Part shown: positions 5,481-53,326 of the stretch, one piece after another
Numbering within the stretch: the first letter of the stretch is position 1
Layout of the letters: every line of letters starts with the position of its first letter
Source: an uncultured Methanosarcinales archaeon
GTDB taxonomy: Archaea; Nanobdellota; Nanobdellia; Woesearchaeales; DSVV01
Length of the DNA: 64,000 bases
Assembly: GCA_964390375.1 (NCBI GenBank)
Contig: CAYMIF010000002.1
Location: 4,191 to 68,190, forward strand
Direction of reading: 5' to 3'
Program-made: the position numbers and the translations under genes
The notes under the pieces: generated by a model
The model's input: only the letters and a program-made list of their open reading frames with translations
Databases searched by the model: none
What the model was told of the DNA's origin: nothing

Positions 5481-5522
5481 TTTGGTTTTCCGAAAACCTT
5501 TTTTTAGAAAAAAGGAGCTTTC

Positions 5523-6887: not shown

Positions 6888-6903
6888 AGCAGCAATTAAA
6901 GAT

Positions 6904-8587: not shown

Positions 8588-8589
8588 TT

Positions 8590-22300: not shown

Positions 22301-25190
22301 TATATGGGCCCGTGACTGGGTCGGATAGCAGGTCATGGCCGTTCCAGCTTGTCTTCACATTGTAGTTGAAATCAGCCGGCTCCAGCACGTTGTATATGAC
22401 TTCGCCTCTGTATCCTGAAGATTGAAGCTTGATCTTGTTTTCTTGTTTTTCGAACCTCTCGGATACTGGTTCGCTTCCCCCCCTCAGATGGTGAAGAATC
22501 TTAAGATCTCTTGCGTTTCCGTCAGTCTTGATGTCATCGAAGACCACCAGATAATCCGGCTTGACAAATACAAGGTGCCTGTCGAACCTTTCGAGCTCAG
22601 GGTCTCCGTTTTCATGATATGGTTCTTTTGCATCCCCTACGATATAATCAAAAAAGTCGGATCCAAAATATGCTTCATTATAGCAGTGGGGACTTCCTGA
22701 ATAAAGCTTTTGGCTGTCTTCGTCATTGTCTACTATAAGAGTGTTATGTCCGATAGTGCTTGCCTTATAAGATGCAGTGCTTCCGAGATGCTTTCCCTGG
22801 TCTGATGCCAGCCAGTCGCCTCCAACATTCAGGATGTAGTGGTTGCAGTCATTTTGGCTTCCGTGGTTGACATCGTCGTGGTCATCTTTCATGCCTAGTA
22901 GTATATCATAGCTCCTCCAGCCAGATCTTGAAAACTGCCATGATACATCTCTAAAATTCCTGGAATATGGTAGGGTGCTGAAATCTTCATGGTCGCTGTC
23001 TTTTTCATACCAAACAAAATCAAGAACATTTGTTCCGACATTGTTCTCTTTCAGCACGTTTCCGGATATTGTATTTTCGTTCTGGCTTGAGAGATAGTTG
23101 GCAAGATGTGAGAAGGAATGTTTTGTGCTGTATAGCGTCTCTCCGAAATTGGCATTCCCGCCTCCGTCTGGAGTTGTCTGGTACACAGAAAAAAGTTGAA
23201 GGTTGTTCAGTCTTTCGTGGTCTGAATAATCGAAGTTCATGACATTCTTCAGCCCATATACTGGCGGCAGGAGCCAGTTTATTGAGCTGGTGCCGTATTG
23301 GAGTCCTTCACGCCATCCTCCATTCTCTCCTATATTGTCTAAAATGTCTTCTACAAGAAGCCTTCCTGTCTCTCCCCATTCCGAAGAATGTTCGTCCTCG
23401 TTATAGACTGCAAGGGCAGGAATCAGGAATCCTCCTACATAATTCACATGGAAATTATTGTTTCTCTTAGCACTCGAGACAGAGAAATATCCCTCTCTGT
23501 CCTTTGCATCGCTATATAGCGGGATTATGCACTTGTCAATCAACGCCTGCCTGATTTCGCCTTGCTTCTGTTCAGAGAATTCCAAAAAAAGCATGTCATA
23601 TGCATAAGCCATTCCCCTGCATATAGATTTGTGGCCAAAATAATAGGTTCCTTCCCAGTTTTCCCACGAGAGGATTGTGTTCACGGAGCTTTTTGCAGGA
23701 GTAAGATATTTGTCGTCTTCTGTCATGACATAAGCGAATGAGAGAGTAAGTAACCTCTCTTCCTCATCCCTCATGCTGTATTCATCATATGAAGGATTTC
23801 CCTGATTAGCATATGAATCTGCTTTGTTTTTTATATCATTCCATATTTCGTTTGGAGATGTACCTAGGTTCCCCTGATCTGTGTCTGTTGTCTTCTGCTT
23901 GAGAGTATTGATTTGCCCTGCACTGAAGAAAAGCTTTGGATGGATATAGAACATAGGAGAATAATCCCTTGTCATGATTGTCGCATGGTTCTTATGTGAT
24001 TTGGTGAAATCGTCCATGGTATTTGCAGCATAAGAACTGGTTTTTCCTGCAATATTCCTGAAGAAAAAATAATAGTCTGCTCCATTGACATTGGACTGCC
24101 ACATATAGATTAGGTCTTCTCCATTATAGTTGTTGTATGTATGGAAATCAGTTTCAGGAATGCCATGGTCCAGTATGCATCCGCCGAAGAAATCTTTCGA
24201 GCCAGTGTCAATGACAGAGAACCATCCATGAGATACATGACCGGAGTTGCTTGCTCCGGAACCAAAAGACCAGGATTGGCTGTCTGTATCTGTCCAGAAA
24301 CTGTCTCCGTCCAGAGAGTCCCCGCCGACATTGACAAGCAGGTATTTGTAATCGTTCATGTTATGTATATCATTTATCTGCAGGAAATTCTCATGGTAGA
24401 TTGTATTTGTGACGCTTTTTGAACCTGATGAAAAATCAATCACTATTCGCACAGGACCTGCAGCCCTGACTGTTGGGCTCAGGCTTCCTCCATCATCAAA
24501 TATTCTGAATTCCTCGATCTGTTCCCTGCCCGAGACCTTTACAGATGTAGGCTGACCGTCCTTGAGCTTTATTATTGTGCTGTCGCCTGCATCGATAGTG
24601 AATTCTTCTGTTGCCTGATTGAATGAATAGCTGAGTCCCTGATAATTAGGTGGTTGATGAGGATTGTCGATAGTGTCAAAATATATATAGAAGTATCTGA
24701 TAGAATTTTGGCTGGTTTCCCCGTCCATTATCCAGACCACCTTGCCTTTTGCATTTGTGTCTGGATCGAAGTCCTCATCAGGCTCAAATTGGGAAGGCAG
24801 TCCAAGATTTGCATCTCCTGCATCGAAAACATATCCTACAGGGTCGTGCTCAATGACCCTGACGGAGTTTAAATCAAACCCCTGGTTTGAGCCAAGCCTT
24901 TGCAGTTCTTCAGTGAAATCGACATCTAGCTCAATAGGATAATCATTCCTGTCAACGCCTCCTGATGACACATTGACAGATATCCTGTACCTGTAATCGT
25001 CATTCCACCATGTCTCATTATAGGGATAATATGCCATATAGCCGGTTATTCCTACAGCATTCTCTTTTCCGAGCATACCTATGATGAAAGATAGCCCGAA
25101 GATTGCGCAGATCAAGGTCATGGCAAGGTAGACTATTACTAGGTTTTTCTTGGTCTCTTGCATTTTCCAAAGACTGATTCTGTATATCAT
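19302..25190 (-). CDS. giant (1962 aa) cell-surface protein: N-terminal signal-anchor, heparinase II/III-like (polysaccharide lyase-like) region, FG-GAP/VCBS beta-propeller repeats, cadherin-like and FN3-like domains, Cys-rich module, acidic linker, C-terminal TM anchor with poly-Lys tail
   Basis: FG-GAP repeats such as DFDSDGRDEIAV, GDIDNDGYNEIICP and GDVDQDGAVEIVLAS. Cadherin-like DDDGDNVVFSDNTNLFNINRDSGMISFVP...ITITISDG. Heparinase_II_III-like block ...GGDWLASDQGKH...GHNTLIVDNDED...LVVFDDIKTDG. C-terminus KTILVFVLMILIIVLIVPVFTIIKKKKKENK. Confidence 0.7.
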   Translation of the reverse strand: MIYRISLWKMQETKKNLVIVYLAMTLICAIFGLSFIIGMLGKENAVGITGYMAYYPYNETWWNDDYRYRISVNVSSGGVDRNDYPIELDVDFTEELQRLGSNQGFDLNSVRVIEHDPVGYVFDAGDANLGLPSQFEPDEDFDPDTNAKGKVVWIMDGETSQNSIRYFYIYFDTIDNPHQPPNYQGLSYSFNQATEEFTIDAGDSTIIKLKDGQPTSVKVSGREQIEEFRIFDDGGSLSPTVRAAGPVRIVIDFSSGSKSVTNTIYHENFLQINDIHNMNDYKYLLVNVGGDSLDGDSFWTDTDSQSWSFGSGASNSGHVSHGWFSVIDTGSKDFFGGCILDHGIPETDFHTYNNYNGEDLIYMWQSNVNGADYYFFFRNIAGKTSSYAANTMDDFTKSHKNHATIMTRDYSPMFYIHPKLFFSAGQINTLKQKTTDTDQGNLGTSPNEIWNDIKNKADSYANQGNPSYDEYSMRDEEERLLTLSFAYVMTEDDKYLTPAKSSVNTILSWENWEGTYYFGHKSICRGMAYAYDMLFLEFSEQKQGEIRQALIDKCIIPLYSDAKDREGYFSVSSAKRNNNFHVNYVGGFLIPALAVYNEDEHSSEWGETGRLLVEDILDNIGENGGWREGLQYGTSSINWLLPPVYGLKNVMNFDYSDHERLNNLQLFSVYQTTPDGGGNANFGETLYSTKHSFSHLANYLSSQNENTISGNVLKENNVGTNVLDFVWYEKDSDHEDFSTLPYSRNFRDVSWQFSRSGWRSYDILLGMKDDHDDVNHGSQNDCNHYILNVGGDWLASDQGKHLGSTASYKASTIGHNTLIVDNDEDSQKLYSGSPHCYNEAYFGSDFFDYIVGDAKEPYHENGDPELERFDRHLVFVKPDYLVVFDDIKTDGNARDLKILHHLRGGSEPVSERFEKQENKIKLQSSGYRGEVIYNVLEPADFNYNVKTSWNGHDLLSDPVTGPYMEIFQNGAKTSARFLSVLDIQTSGRASGLTVEKSMSGSKTITTGDFDSDGRDEIAVNRNGLRIIDYSGGDYTTITQGDICTGPKIAAGDIDNDGYNEIICPVNDNNQINIVGYSGSQYIHEATLNPGRMIVKGIAVEDIDHDTVPEIVIGDNSGYVKIIDFSQGGYNVIKSSDLGEGINDLDVGDVDQDGAVEIVLASDSRIRVINTDLGIERQASVACNNIKTGNLDFDDYLEITCDEEIYQYDGSSISKEGEISSYALTNIELADVDGSGRLDIIKTGSQSVWSMVEIYDLGYSNYRKELENREFGDSFSGIATGYLDDDENKEIIIGSDVEGKIVILSVANYGDDELDIPNTGGFENAKEVTKISGANHNGARIQTDEYQDIVIIRTTESGSFAGEGVTCNGMQCMLRTNLHTGRYDMFGVSYGTEMSYNGQNLMLFNKEASGILRQREGYKEAKISAGSSTNVQIYSETEPSKVYVNGASKSFGYSNKLVLISGISGDAKIRIAGEIDAGSAPYFSPPLTDKTAAEDSQFTYDINAVDDDGDNVVFSDNTNLFNINRDSGMISFVPSNNKVGSHDITITISDGMNTATDTFRLTVTNVNDPPTKPSLSQPSDNSVRNSTTVYFSWMPGSDIDAGDSVTTRLIVRNESSTVYEQEIAASSKTLSLADNTRYHWKVISEDMSGAETVSDEHSFVVDTGAELPFCGDGNCDSSEDCNTCEEDCGACQITAPVDEEEEDEDDNSGSSRSSGSSSGGPSNFAPRRDVKVDTKSYDDKMVMPEYTDKITVRPDEYSIDSVDIKLSETMKNPYVEISVSEEPDGDVFYMKPGSSVYNYIELSADEISDDLVLDVEFSLNVNKRWIENSHSDLDSIRAYMLDDEEWKEVGISLISEDSRHATYKIDSEKLGNFVIVAEESELSSSAERTRTITREEEPASDLSGQAASAVAEEIDKEKGGSAVKTILVFVLMILIIVLIVPVFTIIKKKKKENKVEQEMERFF

Positions 25191-25442: not shown

Positions 25443-27530
25443 ATGGCAGAAAAGCAGGTAATTAGGAACCTTGTATCCAGGAAGAGAAGCCTTCAGAGGA
25501 TAATTGACCGAAAGAAGCTTTCCAGGAAGGAAAAGGGATTGATATTAGGAGAATTCTTAGAGATTTCTGCTTTTCTTGATAAATACAGGGAGGAAATAGA
25601 GGGATTATCTAAAAAAAAGATACAAGATTATCTGAGAGCCAGGAAAAGATCATTGCATGGCTCAAAAAATCATAAAGACATAGGCGCTCTGAATGCCCTG
25701 GATTATATCAGGAACCAGATTCAGTTGGAGAAATCAGGAAATGATGAAGAGGTAGTAAAAATAATGAGTCAGGAGGAGACAAAGGATCGTTTTTTCAGGC
25801 TTAAGTCTATGTTTGCACGGTTTCACAGGAAAGAATTCGGTGAGAAAAGTCCGGTTTTCAAGAAAAGACTGACTGTTTCAAAAAAACAGATAATCTTTCT
25901 TTTCCTGATACTAATCTCCTTGAACATCCTCATCCGGCTGCCAAATTTTCCGCATGAATACGGTGTCGACAGCTTCTTCATCCATTATCATTCTCAGGAT
26001 ATCATCGAAAAAGGATACGCAGAATGGGTCCAGCATCCTGCATCATTGATAGGTGTTTATCCGATAAACATATCATATCCTGCATTTGTGCCGTACCTTC
26101 TTGCTTATCTGTCTCAGATGACTGGTATTGGTCTTGAGTTCATAATACTTATTCAGTCCATACTGATTGGTATATTGGGAAGCATCACTTCATTTATGTT
26201 TGCAAAGGAGTTCTCTAAGAGTGATTTGGTGGGTTTCTTCTGCGCTTTCTCATTCTCATTATCTCCGATATTTTTGAAGTTCACTATGTGGACTACATCA
26301 TCTCGTGCTCTTTTTGTGGCCTTAATGCCGTTGGTTCTTTATTTTCTAATACGTTTTGAAAACACAAGGCAGTGGAGATATCTTATGTTTTTCTTCATAT
26401 TCGCAGCAGTCGAGGCGATGACTCACCGTCTGTTCCTGTTCATAGTGGTATTTCTTATCCCTTCATATGTTCTGGCCAAGCTTTTTATTGCGATAAGGAA
26501 CAGGATATCTCATTTTTTTGTGCGCCAGCTCTACATCTATCTATTCCTGATTATGATCTTCCTGTTCTTCATTCAGTTCTCCAACATAAGTTTCTTCGCA
26601 GACCAGCAGTATGATTATGCTTCAGGATATTTTTTCGATCAGGCAGAGGACGGGACATTCGAGCGAAGCTCGGCAAATCCTTTCCTTTTGTTCCTGAACC
26701 TTGTGATAGATTATGCATCAAGGCTTGGTATAATGTCGATATTCATGCTTATTGGTTTGTTCATACTGATCTCCAAGATGAAGAACCTTAATTTCACTTT
26801 CAACGACCTATTCCTCTTGTTCTTCATAACCATAGGAATTACCCTTTTCATCAAGGGCAAGTATATCAACATGTTCTATCTGATAATATTCTCTCTTCTG
26901 TCCGGGATAGGTTTTGAGAAGCTCATCATATATCTCTATCACAAGAAAAGTTTTTATGCAAAAGCCGTGCCATTATTGATAGTGGTAGTCCTGACATCTT
27001 CATTGATTTTCACGATCTTCATGTTTCAGCACTGGCTCGGTGTAAGTATCGATGAAGGCGAAGGCATGAGCTATCCCTGGAAGCAGGAGCGGACAGTAAG
27101 GGGATATAACTATCTTGATACAATCAATCAGCAGGACCTTTTGATACAAATATCCGAGAATCCGTTGAGTTATCATTTCTTCTCGATGTCAACATTGAAT
27201 GAATTTCTTCCAAAGGAAATTGATTATGAAAATTTGGATGCGGAAATTGAATTTGACCTTTCATCTAAGCTTCCATTCTACTACACCATTTCAAATCCAG
27301 AAGAGTCTATAAGAGTAAAGGAAGGAGTTCATCAAAGATGGGGTTTGATACAGGCAGACCCCCGGGATTACAGGTTGGATAGCAGAATCAATTCCCTGGG
27401 TCTTGGTTATATCTATATGAATCCTGAAAACAACAGGTATTATAAGGGCTGGTCTTTTTACAATGAGCTCCCAAACTTCTATGACAAGATATATGACAAT
27501 TCGCACGAGCAGGCGTGGCAGATATATTAA
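25443..27530 (+). CDS. polytopic integral membrane protein (~12 TM) with soluble N- and C-terminal domains; possible GT-C-type glycosyltransferase / glycan polymerase, family not assignable
   Basis: Hydropathy pattern is readable from the sequence. It is divergently transcribed from the giant surface protein and adjacent to the flippase. No WWDYG (AglB) motif was found. Confidence 0.4.
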   Translation: MAEKQVIRNLVSRKRSLQRIIDRKKLSRKEKGLILGEFLEISAFLDKYREEIEGLSKKKIQDYLRARKRSLHGSKNHKDIGALNALDYIRNQIQLEKSGNDEEVVKIMSQEETKDRFFRLKSMFARFHRKEFGEKSPVFKKRLTVSKKQIIFLFLILISLNILIRLPNFPHEYGVDSFFIHYHSQDIIEKGYAEWVQHPASLIGVYPINISYPAFVPYLLAYLSQMTGIGLEFIILIQSILIGILGSITSFMFAKEFSKSDLVGFFCAFSFSLSPIFLKFTMWTTSSRALFVALMPLVLYFLIRFENTRQWRYLMFFFIFAAVEAMTHRLFLFIVVFLIPSYVLAKLFIAIRNRISHFFVRQLYIYLFLIMIFLFFIQFSNISFFADQQYDYASGYFFDQAEDGTFERSSANPFLLFLNLVIDYASRLGIMSIFMLIGLFILISKMKNLNFTFNDLFLLFFITIGITLFIKGKYINMFYLIIFSLLSGIGFEKLIIYLYHKKSFYAKAVPLLIVVVLTSSLIFTIFMFQHWLGVSIDEGEGMSYPWKQERTVRGYNYLDTINQQDLLIQISENPLSYHFFSMSTLNEFLPKEIDYENLDAEIEFDLSSKLPFYYTISNPEESIRVKEGVHQRWGLIQADPRDYRLDSRINSLGLGYIYMNPENNRYYKGWSFYNELPNFYDKIYDNSHEQAWQIY

Positions 27531-29029
27531 ACAAATTTTATTCTTCTCCTCATTTTTTGAAATATATTATGAATGAGTTCCTTTTCTTCAGTATTCAAAA
27601 TTATATACTCAAGACCAATTAGGCTAATGCACATCCCTATCCCGAGAAGAAAAGAAGTGATCATTTCTGTTTGTATTATAAGATATCCTGCTGCTGAAAA
27701 TATAATCGATAGTATGAATACCTTTGAGAAATTTGATATTGATACATCATACCATTTCTTAAGGAAGCTGAGTTTGAGTGCGAAGATGACGATAGAGCTG
27801 AGAAGGTAGGTGTAACCAAGCCCCAAAAGTCCGAAGTATCCGATGAAAAAGAATCCGAAAAGGACGAATAGCAATGCCCAGATGACATCCAGGGTTAGAA
27901 TAGTCCATGTTCTGCCTGTTGCGACAAAATAGGTGGATGTGATGGGTGAAAGGGAATCTACATAAGCCGCCAGGAGAAAAAAATAGGTTATCTGTGCAGC
28001 ACCAAGATAGGCTCCGCCAAAAAGCAGCCATATAAGGAATTTTGAGGAAACACCGATACCTAGTGCAACAGGTAATACAAGTATCATTATCACTCTGAGT
28101 ATTTTTGTTACTGTCCGTGATGCTTTTGATTTATCTTTCCCCTGTATCTCAGAGATCATTGGCAGGAGGGGAACAGCAAGTATCTGAGGTATCGAAAGGA
28201 ACAGGTTATATAGATTTCTTCCTATTTTGCTCAGCCCAAGCTGTGCAAAACCTATTGATATTGCAAGAAAAGTGTTCATGGCCCAATAGGCAGGAAGTAG
28301 AACAAAGCCAGAAATAAATATGGGAGTTGAGAACTTGATTACCTTGAAAAGATACTTCCTTTCGAACCTGAATGGTCGTATTTTTACCTTTTCTTCTTTA
28401 AACTTGCTCCATACCACTTGCAGCGACATTATTGTGACAACAGCTCCGGTAATGGCAAGCGACAGGAAAACTCCTAAAGCCTGGTATTTCAGTATAAGAA
28501 AATAAGCAATGGGAAGACCAACTAGGCTGTTCAAAACACCAAGTATGGAATGCATCTTTATGTCCTGGAATCCCCTTATGATTGCTCTTAGCATATCGAA
28601 TATCGAGATTATTAGGATTGAAAGGGCGTTGACTTTGATGAGCAGGCTGATTGTAGGATCATCATATAGCCTGTTCGATATGAAATCAGAAAATAGGGCG
28701 TAAAGTGATGTTGACAGAATTGTAAGAAAGAACAGGAGGTTCACTATGGTGGTAATGTACTTGTCCCTCTCCTTCTTGTCGCCTTTGTGTTCAGATATGA
28801 ATTTGGTGGCTGCGATTGGTAGTGCAAATATTGCGATTGTGCCGACAATGCCTCCCAGGTTTTGAACGATTGCAATCTTTCCAAGTGGCTCAGGATCGTT
28901 TAGAATCCTGGCAACTATCATAGATCGGATTATGCTGAATATTGTGACCAGCACGACCGCTAAGAAAGAATAGCTTACGTTTTTTAGGAATCTTCTTCTG
29001 AAATCGGACATCTTTGCCTCCAAGATCAC
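27527..29029 (-). CDS. Wzx-like oligosaccharide flippase / polysaccharide biosynthesis protein (MOP superfamily)
   Basis: 500 aa with ~12-14 TM segments and N-terminal RRRFLKNVSYSFLAVVLVTIFSIIRSMIVARIL, typical of Wzx/RfbX. Confidence 0.65.
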   Translation of the reverse strand: MILEAKMSDFRRRFLKNVSYSFLAVVLVTIFSIIRSMIVARILNDPEPLGKIAIVQNLGGIVGTIAIFALPIAATKFISEHKGDKKERDKYITTIVNLLFFLTILSTSLYALFSDFISNRLYDDPTISLLIKVNALSILIISIFDMLRAIIRGFQDIKMHSILGVLNSLVGLPIAYFLILKYQALGVFLSLAITGAVVTIMSLQVVWSKFKEEKVKIRPFRFERKYLFKVIKFSTPIFISGFVLLPAYWAMNTFLAISIGFAQLGLSKIGRNLYNLFLSIPQILAVPLLPMISEIQGKDKSKASRTVTKILRVIMILVLPVALGIGVSSKFLIWLLFGGAYLGAAQITYFFLLAAYVDSLSPITSTYFVATGRTWTILTLDVIWALLFVLFGFFFIGYFGLLGLGYTYLLSSIVIFALKLSFLKKWYDVSISNFSKVFILSIIFSAAGYLIIQTEMITSFLLGIGMCISLIGLEYIILNTEEKELIHNIFQKMRRRIKFV

Positions 29030-29988
29030 ATCCTGAATATTTTTTTTATTAATGGTATCCTTTTACGGTTATCCTTAGTGCATATGAAGTATTGATTAAG
29101 TTCAGGATTGAATCCGGATTTGTATCTTGCGATTGCCTCTACATTGCAGCCCATCAGGTCCATGGTCTTCACTTGTCTTTTATGGAGTTCTTTGGCAACA
29201 TACCAGATAAGGCTTTGCGGAACCTTGTAATGCCAGTACCTTTCATCAGACGCGGCCTGCCAATAGTATGCCGCTTCCTTGGATTTTAGGACTACTGCAT
29301 ATGCAGCAGGATTTTTTTCATGGTCTGCCCTAAATATCATGAAATCTTTTCCTAATTCTCGTGAGATTTTCAAGAGACAATCATCTATGCGTGGAACACC
29401 TATACCTGATCTTTCATGGGTATGCCTCCACATCTCAAAGAAATGTTCTATCTCTTTCGAAGAGCTATTCACTTCGCTAATCTTCACCTGCTTGTAGCTT
29501 TCTCCCTTTCTGAGGATGTTTCTTGTCTTTTTCTCAAAACTTTCAAACATCTTTTCGGGTTTCTTGATTCTTAAGAGATACGTATATGAAGGATTAGCTG
29601 AAAAACCAAGCCATTTCAGTGGTCTTGCATCAGTCTCTCCTGGATTTGTAGCGATCTGTATAGACCTGCAGCCAGAGAAGAAATCGCTTATACATTGATA
29701 GATATCTGATTTGAAAGAGTAACCTTTACTTAGAAAATCTTCCTTGATTATGATGCCTGAGTAGGTTGACAAAGGTGACAGGCCGGGGTTTTTCTTGCTA
29801 TAGTTGAAAATGGGTTGTATCGCGATTAATTGGGAATTCTGATATATTCCCAAAGGAACAAATTCGCATGAATTATTTGAATTCGCAGCAATCCTGGCAA
29901 CATTGAACTTATGAAAAACACTTCCTCCATTAGACTCAACAAATTCATCCCATTCTTTCTTTTCTACTTCCCTGCAGTCGAGTTTCAT
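29026..29988 (-). CDS. FemAB/CelD-like GNAT-fold acyltransferase (Acetyltransf_6-like), paralog 1 (likely start at the second Met, 29988)
   Basis: ~320 aa with an N-terminal EWDEFVESNGGSVFH block and C-terminal YWQAAS...LIWYVAKELHKRQVKTMDLMG typical of the FemAB/BioF2-like family. Confidence 0.5.
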   Translation of the reverse strand: MKLDCREVEKKEWDEFVESNGGSVFHKFNVARIAANSNNSCEFVPLGIYQNSQLIAIQPIFNYSKKNPGLSPLSTYSGIIIKEDFLSKGYSFKSDIYQCISDFFSGCRSIQIATNPGETDARPLKWLGFSANPSYTYLLRIKKPEKMFESFEKKTRNILRKGESYKQVKISEVNSSSKEIEHFFEMWRHTHERSGIGVPRIDDCLLKISRELGKDFMIFRADHEKNPAAYAVVLKSKEAAYYWQAASDERYWHYKVPQSLIWYVAKELHKRQVKTMDLMGCNVEAIARYKSGFNPELNQYFICTKDNRKRIPLIKKIFRM

Positions 29989-31040
29989 CTTTCCCTCTTG
30001 AATGTCTTCTTGATCTTCCTTTTGTATACCCGCCACGGGTGCTTTATAGCAAGCCTGTACCAGGGCGCCTCAAACTTCTCAGGGCACCATCCCATCTTGA
30101 ACCGATATACGCCGGAATCATCGTCCTTGGGAATCCCTCCGAGGTCCAGTAGCCTGTATCCTTTCTCATGGAATTCTCTGATTATATGCCATTTGAAAAG
30201 GTTGTTTTGCCTGTATTTCAGCATACTTCTTGGAGAAGCGTTGTGTTCTGCGCATACTATCCCGTTGTAGCATGTGACAAGTTGAAATCCAATTTTTTTT
30301 CCTTTCAGCTCTGCATAATACACCTTTCCGTTGCCCTTGTCCACGACAATATCCCAAAAGGCGTGGTAATAATCTCTCGGATTGAGTGCAAAACCTTTCC
30401 TGTGTGTGATCTCAGACTCGAATTCGTCATAGAAAAGGTCGATGTCTTTTGATGATTTTGCTTCTTTTATCTCCACACCATGTTTTTCAGCCTGCCGTAT
30501 CGCCTTTCTGTGCTCTTTCTTCATGTCTTTTAATAGCACTTCAGGTTCTTTTCGTAGGTCAAGATAGCCTGAATATCTGTCAACCTTAGTCCATCGATTC
30601 TTGAATTTTTCTTCGAGTATTTTCCTGATTATCCCGGACATCTCATCTTTAAGACAACTTATCCTGAGGTCCACGAGCTTATGCTCCGATGAAAGCCTGT
30701 TCTTCACAAAATCTATGAACTTGATGCAGATCTCTTCGGTTATTTTTTTATCATTTGCTTCAGGAGAAACCAATGGACCGCCATACCCCCAAACACCAGG
30801 ATGCGGAGACCATGCGATATTGCCCTGGATTAGCTTACCGGGCCTTTTGATTATGAAAACCGGCATGATTCCAAGCATTTTCCCATTCTCCACAAAGAGG
30901 AGTTTCACTGCCTTGTCACCAAAACCTCTCTCGATCATCCTGCACCATTCCCAAGTCCAATATATCATGCCACCGGATTTCTTGATCAGGTTATTCCACT
31001 CCCCCCGGTCCCCTTCATGCGCCAGTCTCACTTGTCCCAT
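29985..31040 (-). CDS. FemAB/CelD-like GNAT-fold acyltransferase, paralog 2
   Basis: N-terminal GEWNNLIKKSGGMIYWTWEW and a C-terminal FRFKMGW block; same length class as its neighbour. Confidence 0.5.
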   Translation of the reverse strand: MGQVRLAHEGDRGEWNNLIKKSGGMIYWTWEWCRMIERGFGDKAVKLLFVENGKMLGIMPVFIIKRPGKLIQGNIAWSPHPGVWGYGGPLVSPEANDKKITEEICIKFIDFVKNRLSSEHKLVDLRISCLKDEMSGIIRKILEEKFKNRWTKVDRYSGYLDLRKEPEVLLKDMKKEHRKAIRQAEKHGVEIKEAKSSKDIDLFYDEFESEITHRKGFALNPRDYYHAFWDIVVDKGNGKVYYAELKGKKIGFQLVTCYNGIVCAEHNASPRSMLKYRQNNLFKWHIIREFHEKGYRLLDLGGIPKDDDSGVYRFKMGWCPEKFEAPWYRLAIKHPWRVYKRKIKKTFKRER

Positions 31041-32320
31041 TTTATCAGAAACCTTCCCTTGTTCAGCTGTGCTTTGTGTCTTTTTACGCCTATGTCTATC
31101 ACCACAGGCATCCAGTCGCTGGATTCACCTCTGATGTTTCCCCTAGAGGTGAACTCGATGTCTATCCTGCATCTCTCCCTTTTTGACCACCATCGGTATA
31201 GCTCTGTTCCGGTAGCTTTCCAGTATTTGTGCTTATTTACATAATCCACCAGGAAATCCAGGCTTTTCATTATCTGTCGAAATCCGCTTTTGTTGAAATA
31301 TTCATTATGGAAATTGACAACATAGCAGCCATAGAACCTCTCCACGTATTTGATGGTCTCGTACATCTTATTGCGGATATCATTATAGCTCATGTTTTTA
31401 TTGATAGCTGTCCAGTCCATGAAAAGCGTAGGTATCTCAAAAAGCTTTGAGAACCTCCCCTCGACCATCGGATGGAATGGATAGCACAGTCCTGCCCTGT
31501 ATCCGAACCTCTCGTTCTTGTAGAATGACATGTCATATTTCAGATTCTTCTCCATCTCTGACCAGCTTTGCGGGACCTTGAATTTCAGAAGGTGCATCCT
31601 CACGCCTTTTATGTCGCAGTCTGTCTTCTCACGAAGCTTGCGGATCTCCGCGACCAGCTCTCTTTCGCAGTTGGATATGGAGTGCAGCCCTATCTCGTGC
31701 TTAAGATCAGCCAGCACATCGATCATCTTTGAAAAATAGTTCTTGTCCTGATAATCAGAGAAGAAGAAGAAAGTGGACCTAATCTTGTGCTTGTCCAGGT
31801 ATTTCAGCATTGAATGGAAATAGCCTTTGTCGAATCTCGGCAGGATGTTCTTCATCTTCAGATATGCCTTGCTTCTGAGGCTTGCGTTCTTGTGCCACGA
31901 ATGCTTCTCGAAAATGGAGTCTATGTCATGTGTGCAGACGAATGCAGCTTTCTTGAACTTAGGCCAGTACCATTTTCTCACTATCGGAAGGTCCTGGTTA
32001 TGGAAGATCTCTGTTATATTCTTTACAAGCACCTCTTCATAGAAATTCAGCACAGGTATAGTGACATTGTCCTTGCAGTATCCGGACAGGTAGTTGATTG
32101 CGTTTATCTGCAGGAAATTCGTAAGGATGTAAAGCTTGTTCTTCTTGCGTTTAAGTCCGGTGAAGCTGTCCACGATCTCTATCTCGCAGGCATAATCCCT
32201 ATTGGCTTTTTTTTTCTCGAATATTATCCCCTGGTGGTTCAGCATCTCTGACAGTACTGCGATGTGCGGATTCCCTCCTTTGATGGATACCATCAGGCTC
32301 TTATTTTGATTTTTTCCCAT
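31028..32320 (-). CDS. divergent polysaccharide deacetylase-like protein (CE4/NodB-related?), tentative
   Basis: FVCTHDIDS (a TFDDG-like motif), STFFFF and EIGLHS segments. It is adjacent to the FemAB-like gene, as in bacterial EPS loci. Confidence 0.35.
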   Translation of the reverse strand: MGKNQNKSLMVSIKGGNPHIAVLSEMLNHQGIIFEKKKANRDYACEIEIVDSFTGLKRKKNKLYILTNFLQINAINYLSGYCKDNVTIPVLNFYEEVLVKNITEIFHNQDLPIVRKWYWPKFKKAAFVCTHDIDSIFEKHSWHKNASLRSKAYLKMKNILPRFDKGYFHSMLKYLDKHKIRSTFFFFSDYQDKNYFSKMIDVLADLKHEIGLHSISNCERELVAEIRKLREKTDCDIKGVRMHLLKFKVPQSWSEMEKNLKYDMSFYKNERFGYRAGLCYPFHPMVEGRFSKLFEIPTLFMDWTAINKNMSYNDIRNKMYETIKYVERFYGCYVVNFHNEYFNKSGFRQIMKSLDFLVDYVNKHKYWKATGTELYRWWSKRERCRIDIEFTSRGNIRGESSDWMPVVIDIGVKRHKAQLNKGRFLIKWDK

Positions 32321-33458
32321 CTTTTCTTTGATCTTTCTTTTTTCTCCTGATCAGCTTCTTTATGCTTCCATATGTTTTTGGAAATCTTTTCTTCATCCTC
32401 CTTTTCGGCTGAACAAGTTCCCTGAAGTTCTTCAGCACGTGCACCCTGTTTCTGAGATTCTTTCTCATGATTACTATACGGTAGTTCTTGTTCTCTGAAG
32501 CACCCCATTGGCTTTTGTATCCATGCGCGCCTCTAAGAAAATCAAATATGTCGTCTTTTTTTGATATTGCATCCTGAATCGAGAACCTGAAACTGAGATT
32601 GCCGACTGAATACTCATAGTATTCTGGGTCAAGTCCTGTAAGATAGCAGTATACCCTGTTTTCATACTCAAAGCAGTAGTTGCATGCAGCAGGCTTTTTG
32701 TTTATGATCAGGAACTCAAGCTTGAGAAACCCATGTTCAAAAAGGATGTTTGCAATCCTTTTATGGAACTCTTTATATTTCTCATCCTCTGCAGGAGTGT
32801 CCATGTCGCAGTCTTTTATCCGCCTCAGGTGCAGCCTCAGGAAATCGTTCATGTCATGCTCTATCTTTTCTGGATCTTGGGTCCTGTAGTAAGACATCTC
32901 AAGTCTGTCCTCTTCCAGCTTCCTCAGGCTTCTTCTTATGCTGCGTCTAAGTCTTCTGTTCATATTGTTCTTTTCCATCTCCTCAAAGCTTCCTGCAAGC
33001 CTGGCAGGGTATGTCGTGTTCTGATGGTTCTTGATGCAAATGAATCTCTTGTCTTTCTTGATTATCCTGTAGTTTCTGGCTAGGATTGAGTTTTCAGGAA
33101 GTTCCTCCAGGTCCATAATGCAGTCTGGATATCTCTCATGGATGTGGTCGATAAAGCTCAGTATCACCGGCTCTTCCATCCCCTGCCTGATGATGAAAGA
33201 GAGATAGTCGCAGTGCGGGACCCCGATAAAGCTCAGGACATTATTCTCAAGCTTCAGGGGAATTATCCCGACAAGCTCTTCTTCAGAATATATTGTGAAT
33301 ATCCGAAAGTCATGTGTCTGAAAGACTATTGTCCAGTTGTAGGCCCACTCATGCCTCATGAAGATATAATTGTCCCGGCATTCTGAGAGGAGCTGGTTCC
33401 ATTCCTCTTTAATCTCCCTGAATCTGTCCAGTGTCTTGATCTCTTTTATCTGAATCAT
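32301..33458 (-). CDS. CelD/FemAB-like GNAT-fold acyltransferase, paralog 3, with basic C-terminal tail
   Basis: N-terminal EEWNQLLSECRDNYIFMRHEWAYNW and C-terminal FDFLRGAHGYKSQWG, the CelD/BcsL-like signature. Confidence 0.5.
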   Translation of the reverse strand: MIQIKEIKTLDRFREIKEEWNQLLSECRDNYIFMRHEWAYNWTIVFQTHDFRIFTIYSEEELVGIIPLKLENNVLSFIGVPHCDYLSFIIRQGMEEPVILSFIDHIHERYPDCIMDLEELPENSILARNYRIIKKDKRFICIKNHQNTTYPARLAGSFEEMEKNNMNRRLRRSIRRSLRKLEEDRLEMSYYRTQDPEKIEHDMNDFLRLHLRRIKDCDMDTPAEDEKYKEFHKRIANILFEHGFLKLEFLIINKKPAACNYCFEYENRVYCYLTGLDPEYYEYSVGNLSFRFSIQDAISKKDDIFDFLRGAHGYKSQWGASENKNYRIVIMRKNLRNRVHVLKNFRELVQPKRRMKKRFPKTYGSIKKLIRRKKKDQRKDGKKSK

Positions 33459-34258
33459 ATTACTGCCTTTTCAAATATCTCTCTGTTCTTTCCGCTTATA
33501 TTTAAATAAAATGAATCTTCAGAACCTTTTTTGCTTCTGATCCTATGGATTGTGAATCTCGAAGCAGGCTTTCCATAATCATATTTCGGAAGACTCCTGA
33601 ACCTCTCATCAAAAAGAAATGTCTTTACCAGTATGTCTTCCTTGTTCTGGGAATGATAGCATCTGAGCATCTTTTTTTTGAGCTCTTTTTCATCTTGGCT
33701 GAGTTTTGCGGTGATTACCTTGTTTTTCGAGTTCTTCAGGAACCTGGGCGCTCGAAATCCAGGCTTCTTTCCGGTCACTTTCTTCTTGACATGCTTAAGG
33801 GCAAGCTCAACCGCACTAATCTCATTGTTATACATGGGATATTCAAAAATCTTTGCATTTCCGGTGATTGCTCTTGCGACTGCAGCATTGCAGATGTCAT
33901 GGTCAAGGTGTCCGCCTTCATAAGCAGGTACATAGATCTCTTCAGGCATTATTTTTGCGAACAAAAGCTCAAGCTCTTCGACCAGAGAATCGAACTTTTC
34001 TTTTGTGTCTATCCCAAGCTCACGATGTCCGAGAAACACAAGTTCCTTTGCCCCTCCGATTTCCATGGCTTTCCTGGCCTCTGCTCTTCGAACCTCTGCT
34101 TTGGCATAATAGGCGCTCAGCTTGTTCTCGCCGGAAAAAACATAGATAACATGCATGTCTTTTCTGCCCTTTGCCCGAAGAAGCACACTGGAGCATCCGC
34201 AGGCCTCGTCATCAGGATGAGGCGCGATGATGACTTTTCTATTTTTCCTTGAATTCAT
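33455..34258 (-). CDS. PIG-L/LmbE-family N-acetylglucosaminyl deacetylase (start probably at the internal Met, 34258)
   Basis: The VIIAPHPDDEACGC zinc-binding motif and a ...HxDH segment (GGHLDHD). Confidence 0.7.
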   Translation of the reverse strand: MNSRKNRKVIIAPHPDDEACGCSSVLLRAKGRKDMHVIYVFSGENKLSAYYAKAEVRRAEARKAMEIGGAKELVFLGHRELGIDTKEKFDSLVEELELLFAKIMPEEIYVPAYEGGHLDHDICNAAVARAITGNAKIFEYPMYNNEISAVELALKHVKKKVTGKKPGFRAPRFLKNSKNKVITAKLSQDEKELKKKMLRCYHSQNKEDILVKTFLFDERFRSLPKYDYGKPASRFTIHRIRSKKGSEDSFYLNISGKNREIFEKAVI

Positions 34259-35135
34259 TGGCAATATCTCCCACCTTTTTGAAGTTGAATTCTTTTTTGA
34301 TCTTCTGGAAAAACGATTCCAGCTGTCCAAAATCATCCCTGCAAAGCTCCTTTACCCATCCTTTTAGTCCTGGATGATGTTTGCCCAGCTCCACAAGCTC
34401 CCATGGATGCATAAGAAACATGACATACCCAGGGCCAGTATCCTTTCCAGCCATCCTGCATAGATTGATCATCTTGTCCTTTCCGAACTTGTTCAGCCCG
34501 CCTGCGCCGATCGGATGCCCTTTCACAGGAGACTTTGTCAGCGGGATCTCAAGCACGTCAGAATCTCCTTTTTTCTTCACGTCTTTTTTCGAGGGATAAT
34601 ATGGCCGGCTCGGCGCACCTGCAAGCGAATGCACCTTGTACATCTTCTTGAATATCCTTGTCTCGACATCCGGCATGACAGATGAGTCCACAGTATATCC
34701 CAGCTCTTCCAGGACAGTTATGGTCTTGCCTGACACCCCGAATTTAGGCGTGCGGAACATTTTGCACCTGATTCCTGTTACCTTTTCGATAACATTTGTC
34801 GCGTCAGCGATCTCTTTTCTTTGGGCTCTTTTTGATTTGAACCAGAACATCTTATGGTCAAGTCCGTGGCATCCAAGCTCATGCCCTTCTTCTGCTATCC
34901 TTCTGGCAGTATCCGGATATCTTAGGCATACATCTGCGGTCACAAAGAAAGTTGCCGGAAGTTTCAATCTTCCAAGAAGATCCAGGAATTTCGGCAGAGC
35001 TTTCTCGACTCCAAGATAGCTTCCTTTAAGTTTCGAGCTTATGTCCTGCTCTACGTCCATTGTGATGATAAAATCCGGCTTCATTTTGTAACTTCTCTCG
35101 GGATTGGATAATAAGACTATGCATATACCCCTCAC
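34239..35135 (-). CDS. polysaccharide deacetylase (NodB homology domain, CE4)
   Basis: FIITMDVEQD, ATFFVTADV and the HELGCHGLDH His-His motif. Confidence 0.75.
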   Translation of the reverse strand: MRGICIVLLSNPERSYKMKPDFIITMDVEQDISSKLKGSYLGVEKALPKFLDLLGRLKLPATFFVTADVCLRYPDTARRIAEEGHELGCHGLDHKMFWFKSKRAQRKEIADATNVIEKVTGIRCKMFRTPKFGVSGKTITVLEELGYTVDSSVMPDVETRIFKKMYKVHSLAGAPSRPYYPSKKDVKKKGDSDVLEIPLTKSPVKGHPIGAGGLNKFGKDKMINLCRMAGKDTGPGYVMFLMHPWELVELGKHHPGLKGWVKELCRDDFGQLESFFQKIKKEFNFKKVGDIANEFKEK

Positions 35136-35247: not shown

Positions 35248-35781
35248 TCAATCCAGGATTAATCTTATTTTTTGAATAAATTTTCTTGCATTATCGAATA
35301 TCTCTTCGACCTGCCTTTCAGTGTATCTTTTTATTGCAGAGTATCTTGCAGCATGGCTCTCGACTCTTGCGTCTTCGAAATATTTGACATATTCATCTTC
35401 GAATATCTTATAAGACTGATTGAGCAGTTCTAGGTCTTCCTTTTCCATCTCATTTGGGACCAGAAGATGTCCTAGTGCAATTTGAGCAGCCATATGGTCT
35501 TTTACCTCATAGCCTTTTGAAAGGATTGCAGCTTTTGCACTATAGAGCATTGAATAATATGATATTGTGATAGCCCAATAATTCCAATGAAGTTTTGTCG
35601 GTTCATCGATTCTTGGCTCGATTTCTTTATGGTGGTTGGCTATCATCAGGCTGTTTTCTGCTTTATCAATAAAAAGCTTGATTTTGAAACTGTTCGAAGA
35701 TCGGACAATCCTTTTTTCATCTAGATATTCTTCAAATCTTTTTTGATATTCCTCTTTGTTATATTGCATCGAGTACCACAT
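35248..35781 (-). CDS. HEPN-domain protein (toxin-like partner of adjacent nucleotidyltransferase)
   Basis: ~177 aa helical protein that overlaps the upstream MNT-like gene by 23 nt. The HEPN assignment rests on the pairing and an R..H-like segment (RVESHAARY). Confidence 0.45.
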   Translation of the reverse strand: MWYSMQYNKEEYQKRFEEYLDEKRIVRSSNSFKIKLFIDKAENSLMIANHHKEIEPRIDEPTKLHWNYWAITISYYSMLYSAKAAILSKGYEVKDHMAAQIALGHLLVPNEMEKEDLELLNQSYKIFEDEYVKYFEDARVESHAARYSAIKRYTERQVEEIFDNARKFIQKIRLILD

Positions 35782-36331
35782 TCCAGAAATGGTTTGGATT
35801 ATTTAAGACTATATGGTTCCTCAATGCCTGTTTTCCGACATTCTCTTCATTATCTTTTATCATCTCTTGAAACTCAGGGATCTTTAAGAAAACAGGATTG
35901 ATCTGCTTGTCAAAGATTAACTCGTATTTTGAGAAGGATATCGTCTTATTGCCGGATTTATTGATTATCATAAGATCAATATCGCTTTTTTTTCCTTCTT
36001 CTCCTTTTGCGTAGCTTCCAAATAAGAGTACAATATCTTCTACCCTTAAATCCTTTGATATCTCTCTTATCATTGGATTTCTTTCTAAAAAAGATCTCTT
36101 TTCTTCTTCTGATGAAATTGCAAGGTATGACTGGATTACTGGATTTTGTAGATTAAGTTTTAGTGTCTTGGCTTTTCCTATTTCCTTGATTGCCAGAAGC
36201 TCTTTCATCTTATTTATTGTCCTGTAAAATGAAGCATAAGGAATATGGAGTTTCTTTGAAAGCTCGTGCATAGTAAATTCTTTGTCAAACTCTTTTCCAA
36301 GATGGTTTATGATCATCAATCTATTATCCAT
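35759..36331 (-). CDS. nucleotidyltransferase-domain protein (MNT-like, with N-terminal wHTH)
   Basis: Minimal NTase motif LLFGSYAKGEEGKKSDIDLMII and an N-terminal HTH-like segment. Confidence 0.7.
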   Translation of the reverse strand: MDNRLMIINHLGKEFDKEFTMHELSKKLHIPYASFYRTINKMKELLAIKEIGKAKTLKLNLQNPVIQSYLAISSEEEKRSFLERNPMIREISKDLRVEDIVLLFGSYAKGEEGKKSDIDLMIINKSGNKTISFSKYELIFDKQINPVFLKIPEFQEMIKDNEENVGKQALRNHIVLNNPNHFWNVVLDAI

Positions 36332-36689: not shown

Positions 36690-37355
36690 TCAATCGCGCT
36701 TTTTCCGCGTCTTAATAAACTTCGCAGGAACTCCGCCCCAGACCTCGCCTTTGGGAATGTTCTTGGTCACTACAGAATTAGCTCCGACTATCGCCTGGTC
36801 TCCGATCGACACTCCTCTGGTCACAGTCACCTTTGCGCAAAGCCATGTATCCTTTCCGATGGATACAGGAGCAGCCACTAGTGGTGCATCATGCAAGAGC
36901 TTTCCTGACGAATAGTCCTTGTCATTGTCCCTGATGCTCACCATCTCTCCGACAGAGGAGAAATCGTCTATCGTGATCTTCTTGTGAGCATGAAGCATGC
37001 TGTACCTGTTCAGTATGATGTTCTTGCCGATCATAAGCTCCGCACCTGAGCTGACCTCGAAAGACACGCCCTCGTATATCACAGACAGCTCGCCGATCCT
37101 GGCCTTTCCTCCGCCTTCCACAAGGAACTCGCATCCCAGTCCGATGACACAGTTTCTTTTGAGGACAAGCTCAGAACCTTTATGGAGCCCGAACCTCACG
37201 TCTTTCCCGATCTCGACGCCTTTTTCTATCTTGAGTCTTATCCCTGCGCCCAGCATGTTTCTGATGCCTATCTTAAGCAGAAGCCTGTTCTTTGCCCAGA
37301 TTGACTTAATCTTTCTTGTAGCTTTCATGATATCTGTAGCTTCCTCCTGATCCAC
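36690..37355 (-). CDS. hexapeptide-repeat (left-handed beta-helix) sugar O/N-acetyltransferase
   Basis: Repeated [LIV]G..xx[LIV] hexapeptide pattern through the C-terminal half (IGDQAIVGANSVVTKNIPKGEVWGGVPAK). Confidence 0.7.
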   Translation of the reverse strand: MDQEEATDIMKATRKIKSIWAKNRLLLKIGIRNMLGAGIRLKIEKGVEIGKDVRFGLHKGSELVLKRNCVIGLGCEFLVEGGGKARIGELSVIYEGVSFEVSSGAELMIGKNIILNRYSMLHAHKKITIDDFSSVGEMVSIRDNDKDYSSGKLLHDAPLVAAPVSIGKDTWLCAKVTVTRGVSIGDQAIVGANSVVTKNIPKGEVWGGVPAKFIKTRKKRD

Positions 37356-52725: not shown

Positions 52726-52732
52726 TTTATCA

Positions 52733-53326
52733 TCATTGTCTCATATTCAGTATATAGTCTTGTTTTGGGATTATCGCTTCCTCATGGCACTTGCTGCAGA
52801 CCATTACTGCATGATCAGCCCCTTCCTCTTTGAGTTCCAGCTTCTCCCCGCATTTGCATACAAATCCCTTGAGTCTTGCTGGATTACCCATCACAAGGCC
52901 GTGGTCAGGCACGTTTCGTGTCACGACAGAGCCGGCAGCGACCATTGCATATTCACCGATCACCCGATCACCGCAGATGATGGTCGAGTTTGCGCCGATT
53001 GACGCACCTCGTTTCACAAGTGTTGTTGCAACCCATGATTCGTCCCATGAGAATGCCCTTGGCCGAAGGTCGTTTGTGAACACGACAGAAGGACCGACAA
53101 AGACATCGTCCTCGATTGTCACGCCATGGTATACCGATACATTGTTTTGTATCTTTACCCCCGAGCCGACAGAAACCTCAAGATCTATGTATACGTTCTT
53201 TCCTATATTGCATCTGTCTCCGATCTTTGCATTCTCCCGCACCTGTGCCTGGTGCCAGATATTCGTATCTTTACCGATATCTGCATCTTTTGAGACCTCT
53301 GCTGAAGGATGTATCATTTTAGACAA
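52733..53326 (-). CDS. hexapeptide-repeat N-acetyltransferase (WbpD-like) with C-terminal Cys4 zinc-ribbon
   Basis: LbH repeats throughout, and a C-terminus CKCGEKLELKEEGADHAVMVCSKCHEE. Confidence 0.7.
   Translation of the reverse strand: MSKMIHPSAEVSKDADIGKDTNIWHQAQVRENAKIGDRCNIGKNVYIDLEVSVGSGVKIQNNVSVYHGVTIEDDVFVGPSVVFTNDLRPRAFSWDESWVATTLVKRGASIGANSTIICGDRVIGEYAMVAAGSVVTRNVPDHGLVMGNPARLKGFVCKCGEKLELKEEGADHAVMVCSKCHEEAIIPKQDYILNMRQ

Follow-up and report, generated by a model that had tools for sequence, protein, structure and literature searches.

Transferases of the Fem type are known for building peptidoglycan branches and from a few antibiotics. In staphylococci, FemX, FemA and FemB act in series on the peptidoglycan branch, and these peptidoglycan enzymes do not work in partnership with deacetylases. 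The making of mycothiol and bacillithiol follows another order, in which a GlcNAc-type sugar is transferred (by the GT4 enzyme MshA or BshA), deacetylated (by the LmbE-type MshB or BshB) and then acylated on its amine. Here we analyze a window of 64,000 nucleotides from the genome of an uncultured archaeon (assembly GCA_964390375.1, contig CAYMIF010000002.1) that carries an operon for three Fem-type transferases, which we call Fem1, Fem2 and Fem3, together with three deacetylase-type proteins and a flippase, and we describe polysaccharide-locus relatives of these transferases that are repeatedly wired to de-N-acetylases.

The closest mechanistic analogue of this combination is found in the BD-12 antibiotic pathway, where a Fem-like enzyme attaches glycine to the C2 amine of the amino sugar in streptothrisamine, with Gly-tRNA as donor (PMC10156733, PMC12945691). 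To judge from the title of Guo 2015, as cited in PMC10156733, the streptothricin pathway includes an N-acetyl-gulosamine deacetylase. The likeness to the enzymes Orf11, Sba18 and Sbb17 thus lies in transfer from an aminoacyl-tRNA to the C2 amine of an amino sugar, within a pathway family that has an N-acetyl-hexosamine deacetylase; BD-12, however, belongs to a small-molecule antibiotic pathway of Streptomyces and not to a flippase-linked polymer or glycoprotein glycan. A second resemblance, to the exopolysaccharide loci of XrtA/PEP-CTERM bacteria, had been pointed out in an earlier note made on this DNA from its sequence. These loci also hold one or more CE4 deacetylases, Acetyltransf_6 proteins and a flippase. 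The literature that we searched contained no functional study of FemAB, Acetyltransf_6 or FemX-like enzymes in glycan loci or in archaea, no demonstrated reaction for the CelD/BcsL and PEP-CTERM FemAB families and, as far as we found, no experimental test of what the bacterial PEP-CTERM FemAB/deacetylase pair does.

On the archaeal side, two relevant decorations are known from methanogen N-glycans: in Methanococcus, mannuronic acid bears an amide-linked threonine, and in Methanoculleus, 2,3-diaminoglucuronic acid has a glyceroyl residue as an N-acyl group (PMC11407970). The same review does not mention an N-aminoacyl group on an amino sugar. The earlier note's expectation that such a decoration would be unusual for an archaeal glycan is therefore too broad as regards amino acids and unusual N-acyl groups in general.

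A seven-gene unit of deacetylase-type proteins, Fem-type transferases and a flippase

Seven consecutive open reading frames occupy 27527-35135 of the minus strand (all coordinates are positions within the 64-kb window) in the order CE4, LmbE, Fem3, CE4-fold protein, Fem2, Fem1 and Wzx, the six enzyme genes lying at 29026-35135, where the earlier note had placed them. From CE4 to Wzx, neighboring genes overlap by 4-20 nucleotides each, with overlaps of 4 nucleotides between LmbE and Fem3, between Fem2 and Fem1, and between Fem1 and Wzx. Because of these overlaps, and because the same pairings recur in unrelated loci, the arrangement is not due to chance. The six genes and Wzx form a single, tightly coupled operon, and the locus in which it lies is an archaeal one for a surface glycan that depends on Wzx. 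All six enzymes are devoid of hydrophobic segments. The last gene of the unit (27527-29029, minus strand) encodes a Wzx/MOP-family flippase of 500 amino acids with 12 hydrophobic segments (PF13440 61 bits, MurJ 37, WzxE-like 74). Profile searches found no further Fem- or CelD-like genes in the window. The host is archaeal, as its GluRS scores 541 on TIGR00463 (gltX_arch, cut-off 402) and its aIF-2 scores 747 on TIGR00491 (cut-off 555). Together with the Pfam and Foldseek matches described below, these scores bear out the earlier assignment of three FemAB/CelD-like GNATs and three types of deacetylase to an archaeal glycan island.

The Pfam gathering cut-offs that apply to the six enzymes are 23.1 bits for PF01522, 28.2 for PF02585, 24 for PF02388 and 22 for PF13480, the Acetyltransf_6 or 'BioF2-like acetyltransferase' family. 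The first gene (34239-35135, minus strand) encodes a CE4 polysaccharide deacetylase of 298 amino acids with a DUF3473-like C-terminus (PF01522 84.7 bits), whose HGLDH and RTP motifs align to the structure 3rxz and whose TMDVEQD and MHPWE stretches are, by eye, the likely first and last motifs of the family. The second (33455-34258, minus strand, with the start chosen by the gene caller in a frame open to 34336) encodes an LmbE/PIG-L family de-N-acetylase of 267 amino acids (PF02585 75.3 bits), whose PHPDDE and HLDH motifs are matched in the alignment by AHADDV and HPDH, which belong to the 2ixd zinc site. Its best NCBIfam matches are to the bacillithiol enzymes BshB2 (TIGR04000, 45.0 bits against a cut-off of 195.25) and BshB1 (TIGR04001, 33.1 against 182.5). 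By these motifs, the two deacetylases are plausibly active.

Considering the operon as a whole, we propose that it carries out a cytoplasmic N-acyl exchange on acetamido sugars of a glycan precursor, a reading to which, on the predicted functions of its genes, we assign about an even chance. In this scheme, LmbE, CE4 or the CE4-fold protein would remove the N-acetyl group from a lipid- or nucleotide-linked precursor sugar on the cytoplasmic side of the membrane, leaving a free amine, and a double-GNAT transferase of the Fem type would re-acylate that amine before Wzx flips the precursor. With aminoacyl-tRNA as donor, Fem1 and Fem2 would produce an N-aminoacyl sugar, as the BD-12 Fem-like enzyme does with glycine. 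The operon would be a mosaic of couples in which the CE4-fold protein works with Fem2 (and Fem1), LmbE works with Fem3, and the CE4/DUF3473 deacetylase is an additional member. The analysis establishes the gene families, the folds, the conserved motifs, the overlaps and the recurring gene order; from these we infer in which order the reactions would run, which sugars would accept, what the donors would be and what would be made. Taken together, the gene content suggests that the surface glycan of this archaeon may bear amino acids or other unusual acyl groups.

The CE4-fold protein and its FemX-like partners

The fourth gene of the unit (31028-32320, minus strand) encodes a divergent CE4-fold protein of 430 amino acids (NodB homology, 'WbmS-like') with an extra N-terminal domain, which scores 24.0 bits on PF01522 against the cut-off of 23.1 and matches profile positions 12-67 only. 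Its AlphaFold2 model (pLDDT 86.8) retrieves HP0310 PgdA (3qbu, E 8e-10), 3rxz, 3s6o and PuuE as the top Foldseek hits (E 8e-10 to 1e-5, TM-scores 0.61-0.66), with the HP0310/PuuE-like branch matched at E 8e-10 to 3e-8. Across an alignment of 40 sequences, D132, D134, H213, R241, D263, D302, H338, W377 and W378 are invariant and H243 is nearly so, being invariant in an alignment of 28 sequences. The conserved motifs are THDID, R241-x-H243, D302 and NFH338N; the HxxxH motif reads HSISN. As the second histidine of HxxxH is missing, activity of the protein is plausible but not assured. H243 might substitute for the missing residue. We regard the protein as a putative de-N-acetylase whose metal site is atypical. 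Conservation of the catalytic residues, which mattered to the earlier note's proposal, is thus seen for CE4 (HGLDH, RTP) and LmbE (HPDDE, HLDH) and extends in part to this third protein, which keeps D132, D134, H213, R241, H243, D302 and H338 but lacks the second HxxxH histidine.

The protein belongs to a family of sequences of about 430-450 amino acids with 1971 cluster representatives at E<=1e-3. Only some members are recognized by existing profiles (8 of 28 by PF01522 and 5 of 28 by PF22537, 'WbmS-like'), and the window protein gives no match to PF22537. The namesake of that profile, WbmS of the Bordetella O-antigen locus, is likewise a CE4-superfamily protein of a surface-glycan locus, and we found no function stated for it in the Bordetella literature; the family described here differs in being almost wholly archaeal and in having the extra N-terminal domain. 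A scan of species-representative genomes, which did not return the window's own genome, yielded 29 loci with a CE4-fold gene, of which 28 are archaeal (Nitrososphaerota, Asgard lineages, Brockarchaeota, Bathyarchaeota, metagenome-assembled genomes labeled 'Methanobacteriota', and Methanomassiliicoccales) and one is from an Anaerolineales bacterium. A named member of the family is MSSIT_3778 of Methanosarcina siciliae.

The gene order around these loci argues for a functional coupling of the CE4-fold protein to a Fem-like enzyme. The next gene after the CE4-fold gene, with the same orientation, is Fem2-like in L003 (M. siciliae T4/M), L006, L007/L008, L016, L022 and L028, the last of which has two Fem2-like genes in tandem after a single CE4-fold gene, and a Fem1-like gene takes this position in L034, a locus from Bathyarchaeota. 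All of the examined loci of the euryarchaeal type have a Fem-like gene directly after the CE4-fold gene on the same strand, with gaps of -8 to +13 nucleotides. A convergent hexapeptide acyltransferase gene is often next after the pair, and in L006 a homolog of the window's CE4 (3e-109) lies directly upstream of it. The pairing was seen in archaeal-type loci only. This conserved synteny supports the earlier suggestion that the deacetylases and the GNATs are coupled in a sequence of deacetylation and re-acylation.

The same survey bears on the alternative that the two kinds of enzyme act independently, the deacetylases leaving free-amine (cationic) sugars in the finished glycan while the Fem-like enzymes aminoacylate another nucleophile such as a 3-amino group, a lipid or a peptide. 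CE4-fold genes of Nitrososphaerota and Asgard lineages lie with glycosyltransferase and ABC transporter genes and have no Fem gene at their side, the DegT aminotransferase of the island would make 3-amino sugars, and enzymes of the Fem and MprF types accept varied nucleophiles (PMC12945691). Set against this are the invariable Fem-like neighbor in the euryarchaeal-type loci, the 4-nucleotide overlap of LmbE and Fem3 together with the recurrence of LmbE near CelD-like genes elsewhere, and the matching of three deacetylases by three transferases in one overlapping unit, which would be hard to explain if they were unrelated. We consider independent action improbable.

Fem1 (29026-29988, minus strand, 320 amino acids) and Fem2 (29985-31040, minus strand, 351 amino acids) are FemX-like double-GNAT transferases, Fem2 being the partner of the CE4-fold gene. 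All three GNATs of the operon pass the PF13480 cut-off (59.6 bits for Fem1 and 58.0 for Fem2), and Fem1 and Fem2 alone also pass that of the FemAB family PF02388 (49.9 and 59.2 bits, respectively). The two proteins are 20% identical (BLASTP E 1e-7 over the full length), and Fem3 has no BLASTP similarity to either. To call the three paralogs therefore goes too far, as none of them is a recent duplicate of another. Used alone, Fem2 finds FemX as its sole sequence match in the PDB. A profile of Fem2 and its archaeal neighbors from which Fem1 was excluded (A5) matches FemX (6e-17), Sba18/Sbb17 (3e-13), FmhB (5e-13) and FemA (6e-6) and no CoA-dependent GNAT in the PDB. Fem1 scores 36 bits on this profile and 277 bits on a profile of the Fem1/2 family (A4), the latter value being inflated because Fem1 is contained in the A4 alignment. 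Since every solved relative found uses aminoacyl-tRNA, this is most likely the donor of Fem1 and Fem2, to judge from these matches.

The likeness to FemX, FemA, FemB and FmhB comprises the PF02388 scores of Fem1 and Fem2, the double-GNAT architecture and an aromatic-lysine motif, whereas the setting is different, with an archaeal host, a Wzx-type glycan locus and no murein genes in view. The acceptor must also differ from that of FemX, because Arg211, a residue with which FemX binds the UDP-MurNAc-pentapeptide, is not conserved as we read the alignment of the Fem1/2 family to FemX. This alignment spans FemX positions 13-309 when bacterial Fem-like sequences are added, and the archaeal-only profile covers just residues 141-309. 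F314-K315 of Fem2 does not vary among the archaeal family members and lines up with F304-K305, the FK motif of FemX, in which K305 is the catalytic lysine (PMC12945691); Fem1 carries a YK motif. None of the three transferases is a member of a defined equivalog: on the FemX model NF047883 Fem2 scores 32.5 bits against a cut-off of 500 while Fem1 and Fem3 give no match, and on TIGR03019 (XrtA/PEP-CTERM FemAB, cut-off 260.35) the scores are 20.3 bits for Fem1, 55.1 for Fem2 and 20.6 for Fem3.

Fem1, Fem2 and Fem3 all end in Lys/Arg-rich tails, and a basic C-terminal stretch is common to the archaeal Fem2-like proteins. They could serve as binding regions for tRNA, or for the membrane if the acceptor there is lipid-linked.

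The adjacency and relatedness of Fem1 and Fem2 raise the question of whether Fem1, Fem2 and Fem3 act in series on one sugar amine, in the manner of the staphylococcal FemX, FemA and FemB, and build a short peptide branch. The tandem of Fem2-like genes behind one CE4-fold gene in L028 is of the kind that such a succession would use. Three different deacetylases, however, fit three sites better than one, Fem3 is of another subfamily and has a deacetylase partner of its own, and no gene resembling a cross-linking transpeptidase was seen among the Pfam results for the window. A series of all three enzymes is, in our estimation, very improbable, and separate couples of a deacetylase and a transferase remain our preferred arrangement.

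LmbE, Fem3 and the choice of acyl donor

Fem3 (32301-33458, minus strand) is a double-GNAT protein of 385 amino acids of the CelD/BcsL type (COG5653) with a Lys/Arg-rich C-terminal helix. It scores 81.8 bits on PF13480, has no match to PF02388, and its metagenome relatives carry the JGI label CelD/BcsL, a family that is here paired with LmbE in an archaeon. The AlphaFold2 model has a pLDDT of 93.7, with residues ~345-385 helical at lower confidence. The best Foldseek matches of this model are the aminoacyl-tRNA-dependent peptide synthases Sbb17 and Sba18 in complex with streptothrisamine, which are also significant matches of the Fem2-family profile, followed by 2hqy, FemA and FemX. TM-scores normalized to target length are 0.62-0.68 for most of the top targets (FmhB was also matched) and 0.50 for FemA, and identity to Sbb17/Sba18 in the structural alignments is 13-14%. 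Y314-K315 of Fem3 is kept in its family, with K315 nearly invariant; its correspondence to the FK motif of FemX is based on motif position and not on a significant alignment. Considering that the A5 profile matches only aminoacyl-tRNA-dependent transferases in the PDB and that the best structural matches of Fem3 are of the same class, the three GNATs are set apart from the ordinary small-molecule GNATs with which the earlier note had contrasted them.

A metagenome scan for the Fem3 family gave 80 loci, 43 of which are at least 8 kb long. In 34 of these 43 a GT4 gene lies near the CelD-like gene, usually adjacent to it, and in 16 the LmbE of the window has a homolog (E 5e-16 to 2e-5), the usual order being LmbE-GT4-CelD-like. 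Among the loci fetched for the CE4-fold family, the LmbE query found no homolog beyond the window's own lineage (L001, L002). The compact unit of PIG-L, GT4 and CelD-like Acetyltransf_6 genes forms a widespread metagenome operon (loci L043-L119), as exemplified by L055, where a GT-like gene, a nucleotidyltransferase gene, PIG-L, GT4 and Acetyltransf_6 follow one another at 4124-9035. We know of no described pathway for this operon. It shares with mycothiol and bacillithiol formation the order of the chemistry, by way of analogy only, and differs in that the acylating enzyme is a double GNAT of the Fem/CelD type and not a CysRS-like ligase.

An exosortase locus, L040, contains a Fem3 relative (P0008, 27% identical) and combines EpsH and EpsI (787-2267), two CE4 genes, GT4, two CelD-like genes, a CapK-like ligase (3.7e-55 to that of the window) and Wzx, adjoining a polyketide synthase gene. 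Locus L054 resembles it in having two CelD-like genes and a CapK-like homolog (6e-67). L006, introduced above for its CE4-fold/Fem pair, also carries an exosortase-family gene at 2106-2999. In the window, a phmmer search with this L006 protein found no exosortase homolog, and neither an archaeosortase nor a protein of the PEP-CTERM type was recognized. TIGR03006 (XrtA polysaccharide deacetylase) is the top NCBIfam model for CE4, at 98.2 bits against a cut-off of 276.2 and over profile positions 30-268 of 272, and TIGR03019 is the top model for all three GNATs, both far below their equivalog cut-offs. The proposed resemblance to PEP-CTERM exopolysaccharide loci is thus one of gene kit, which L040 and L006 share, and stops short of membership in the XrtA families or the presence of an exosortase.

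A CapK-like gene also occurs in the island itself. It encodes an adenylate-forming enzyme of 443 amino acids of the CapK/PaaK/F390-synthetase kind (39825-41156, minus strand) with a TSGSTT motif and NCBIfam matches to AMP-dependent ligase, PaaK and F390 synthetase models, all below cut-off, and is by these matches a candidate acyl- or amino-acid-activating enzyme. This raises the alternative that the logic of deacetylation and re-acylation is the same but that the group added, at least by Fem3, is not an amino acid but, for example, a hydroxy-acyl or glyceroyl-type group activated as acyl-AMP or acyl-CoA by the CapK-like enzyme. A glyceroyl N-acyl group is known from the methanogen N-glycan described above, L040 and L054 each combine a CapK-like homolog with two CelD-like genes, no sequence link joins the Fem3 family to enzymes with proven tRNA dependence, and its fold is shared with CoA-using tandem GNATs. 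Fem1 and Fem2, on the other hand, fall into the Fem clade by sequence, where all PDB representatives found use aminoacyl-tRNA; CapK-like genes occur in just one of the 43 CelD-like metagenome loci, plus L040; and the CapK-like enzyme could equally amidate the carboxyl group of a uronic acid with an amino acid, apart from the GNATs, as the threonine-amide glycans of Methanococcus lead us to infer. We regard a non-amino-acid acyl group as rather unlikely for the operon in general. Fem3 in particular may draw either on an aminoacyl-tRNA or on an acyl group that the CapK-like ligase has activated.

Several observations weigh against deacetylation followed by aminoacyl-type re-acylation. The donor is not readable from sequence. 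As regards the deacetylation step, (i) one canonical metal ligand, the second histidine of HxxxH, is absent across the CE4-fold family, (ii) CE4 pseudoenzymes exist, and one of them, BA3943, is among the structural matches of the CE4-fold protein, and (iii) deacetylation need not lead to re-acylation, because the CE4-fold genes of Nitrososphaerota and Asgard loci have no Fem partner. Conversely, a Fem enzyme does not strictly need a deacetylase, because 2,3-diamino sugars offer a free amine at the aminotransferase step. As regards Fem3, tandem GNATs that use acetyl-CoA (VipF, a clavulanate tandem GNAT and glucosamine N-acetyltransferase) are also among its structural neighbors, at lower TM-scores, and a search of the PDB with its family profile gave no significant sequence hit to any solved Fem enzyme. 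Finally, the LmbE homolog is present in no more than the 16 CelD-like loci counted above, and certain CelD-like genes (L038, L041) lie outside glycan loci.

A narrower form of our proposal is that some archaea use charged tRNAs outside translation, with the conserved CE4-fold/FemX-like cassette exposing an amine on an acetamido sugar and attaching one or more amino acids to it. We put this forward tentatively, as possible but somewhat unlikely. Fem1 and Fem2 could then act in series to give a short peptide branch, a peptidoglycan-style chemistry on a non-murein archaeal glycan, and the LmbE-GT4-CelD-like operon would follow the same logic in a parallel pathway that is as yet undescribed. N-aminoacyl amino sugars have long been known from bacterial O-antigens, and the use of aminoacyl-tRNA, if true, would help to explain them. 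It would also be a new source of surface-glycan diversity and, to our knowledge, the first case in archaea of a glycan modification that depends on tRNA. An ordinary acyl-CoA as donor would make the operon a modest extension of the known N-acyl diversity.

All of the protein families involved are already known; the CE4-fold/FemX-like pair, the LmbE-GT4-CelD-like operon and the union of the two in one archaeal operon appear to be undescribed in the literature that we searched. The hypothetical scheme, removal of an acetyl group and addition of another acyl or aminoacyl group, has a good precedent from experiments on BD-12 biosynthesis and is testable, and the cassette is present in a culturable organism, M. 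siciliae T4/M, in which MSSIT_3778 is followed by the Fem-like gene.

Origin and surroundings of the operon

The earlier note also took the six genes as a hint of lateral acquisition from bacteria. As a blanket claim this does not agree with the CE4-fold family being archaeal in 28 of 29 loci, nor with the composition of the genes. Their GC content, their GC content at third codon positions (0.41-0.62) and their codon-usage distances (0.07-0.12) all fall within the spread of the flanking genes, so a recent horizontal transfer of the six genes was rejected; only a toxin-antitoxin pair upstream of CE4 (see below) is clearly deviant in the window. The LmbE/CelD-like part has named relatives in bacteria (Anaeromyxobacter, Acidobacteria) and could, on these relationships, be an older transfer from them. 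Fem1, Wzx and the neighboring gene for a membrane protein of 695 amino acids (25443-29988 in all) have a GC content of 0.39, compared with 0.42-0.46 for the rest of the operon, and the codon-usage distance of Fem1, 0.119, is the largest among the six genes. The cluster may thus have at this end a history of its own.

The 695-amino-acid protein is encoded divergently from the operon (25443-27530, plus strand) and has 11 hydrophobic segments and a soluble C-terminal part. It has no match in Pfam or NCBIfam, and its homologs (E 1e-8 to 2e-46) are found in L006, L016, L022 and L028, all of which have the CE4-fold/Fem pair. It may be an unrecognized glycan polymerase, a ligase or an oligosaccharyltransferase-like protein. 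On the other side of the operon, a gene at 36690-37355 (minus strand) encodes a hexapeptide-repeat acyltransferase of 221 amino acids (PF00132), homologs of which (E 1e-8 to 1e-12) are, in L003, L006, L007 and L022, the convergent genes that come immediately after the Fem2-like gene.

Genes for nucleotide sugars and for priming lie at 47840-53326 (minus strand) and comprise, by Pfam, a WecB-like 2-epimerase, a PF00953 phosphosugar transferase, a short UDP-sugar dehydrogenase-like protein, a GFO/IDH/MocA oxidoreductase, the DegT aminotransferase and a hexapeptide N-acetyltransferase. By analogy with WbpB, WbpE and WbpD, the set of oxidoreductase, aminotransferase and acetyltransferase would provide a route to 2,3-diacetamido uronic acids, and the island would supply acetamido and probably diacetamido sugars. 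It also holds five GT4-type glycosyltransferase genes and a B12 radical-SAM gene. UDP-sugar dehydrogenases are usually ~420-440 amino acids long and have a C-terminal UDP-binding domain. The dehydrogenase-like gene of the island (49884-50642, minus strand) encodes 252 amino acids, of which residues 148-238 match the central domain as the sole Pfam hit, and overlaps the PF00953 gene by 13 nucleotides; it seems to be without the C-terminal UDP-binding domain and may be a truncated or split gene.

At the border of the glycan island (17608-25190, minus strand), the archaeal GluRS gene adjoins a gene for a surface protein of 1962 amino acids. The latter protein combines an N-terminal hydrophobic segment and a DUF4962/heparinase-like region with FG-GAP repeats and Ig-like domains, and at its C-terminus it has a transmembrane anchor and a tail rich in Lys. 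Its C-terminus shows no obvious sorting motif, and no homolog lies beside the related locus L006; it could itself become glycosylated, or it could be an enzyme that processes glycans. The position of the GluRS gene ~8 kb from three Fem-like genes is probably a coincidence. No tRNA gene or RNA family match was found in the window, which is uninformative on the use of aminoacyl-tRNA either way.

Between the hexapeptide acyltransferase gene and CE4 lies the pair mentioned above, which resembles a HEPN/nucleotidyltransferase (MNT-type) toxin-antitoxin module (35248-36331, minus strand). Its GC content of 0.33-0.36 is the lowest in the window, compared with ~0.44 overall, and the pair occupies the same position in L002, a locus of 80% identity. 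It has the look of a selfish module that was inserted here and splits the glycan operon.

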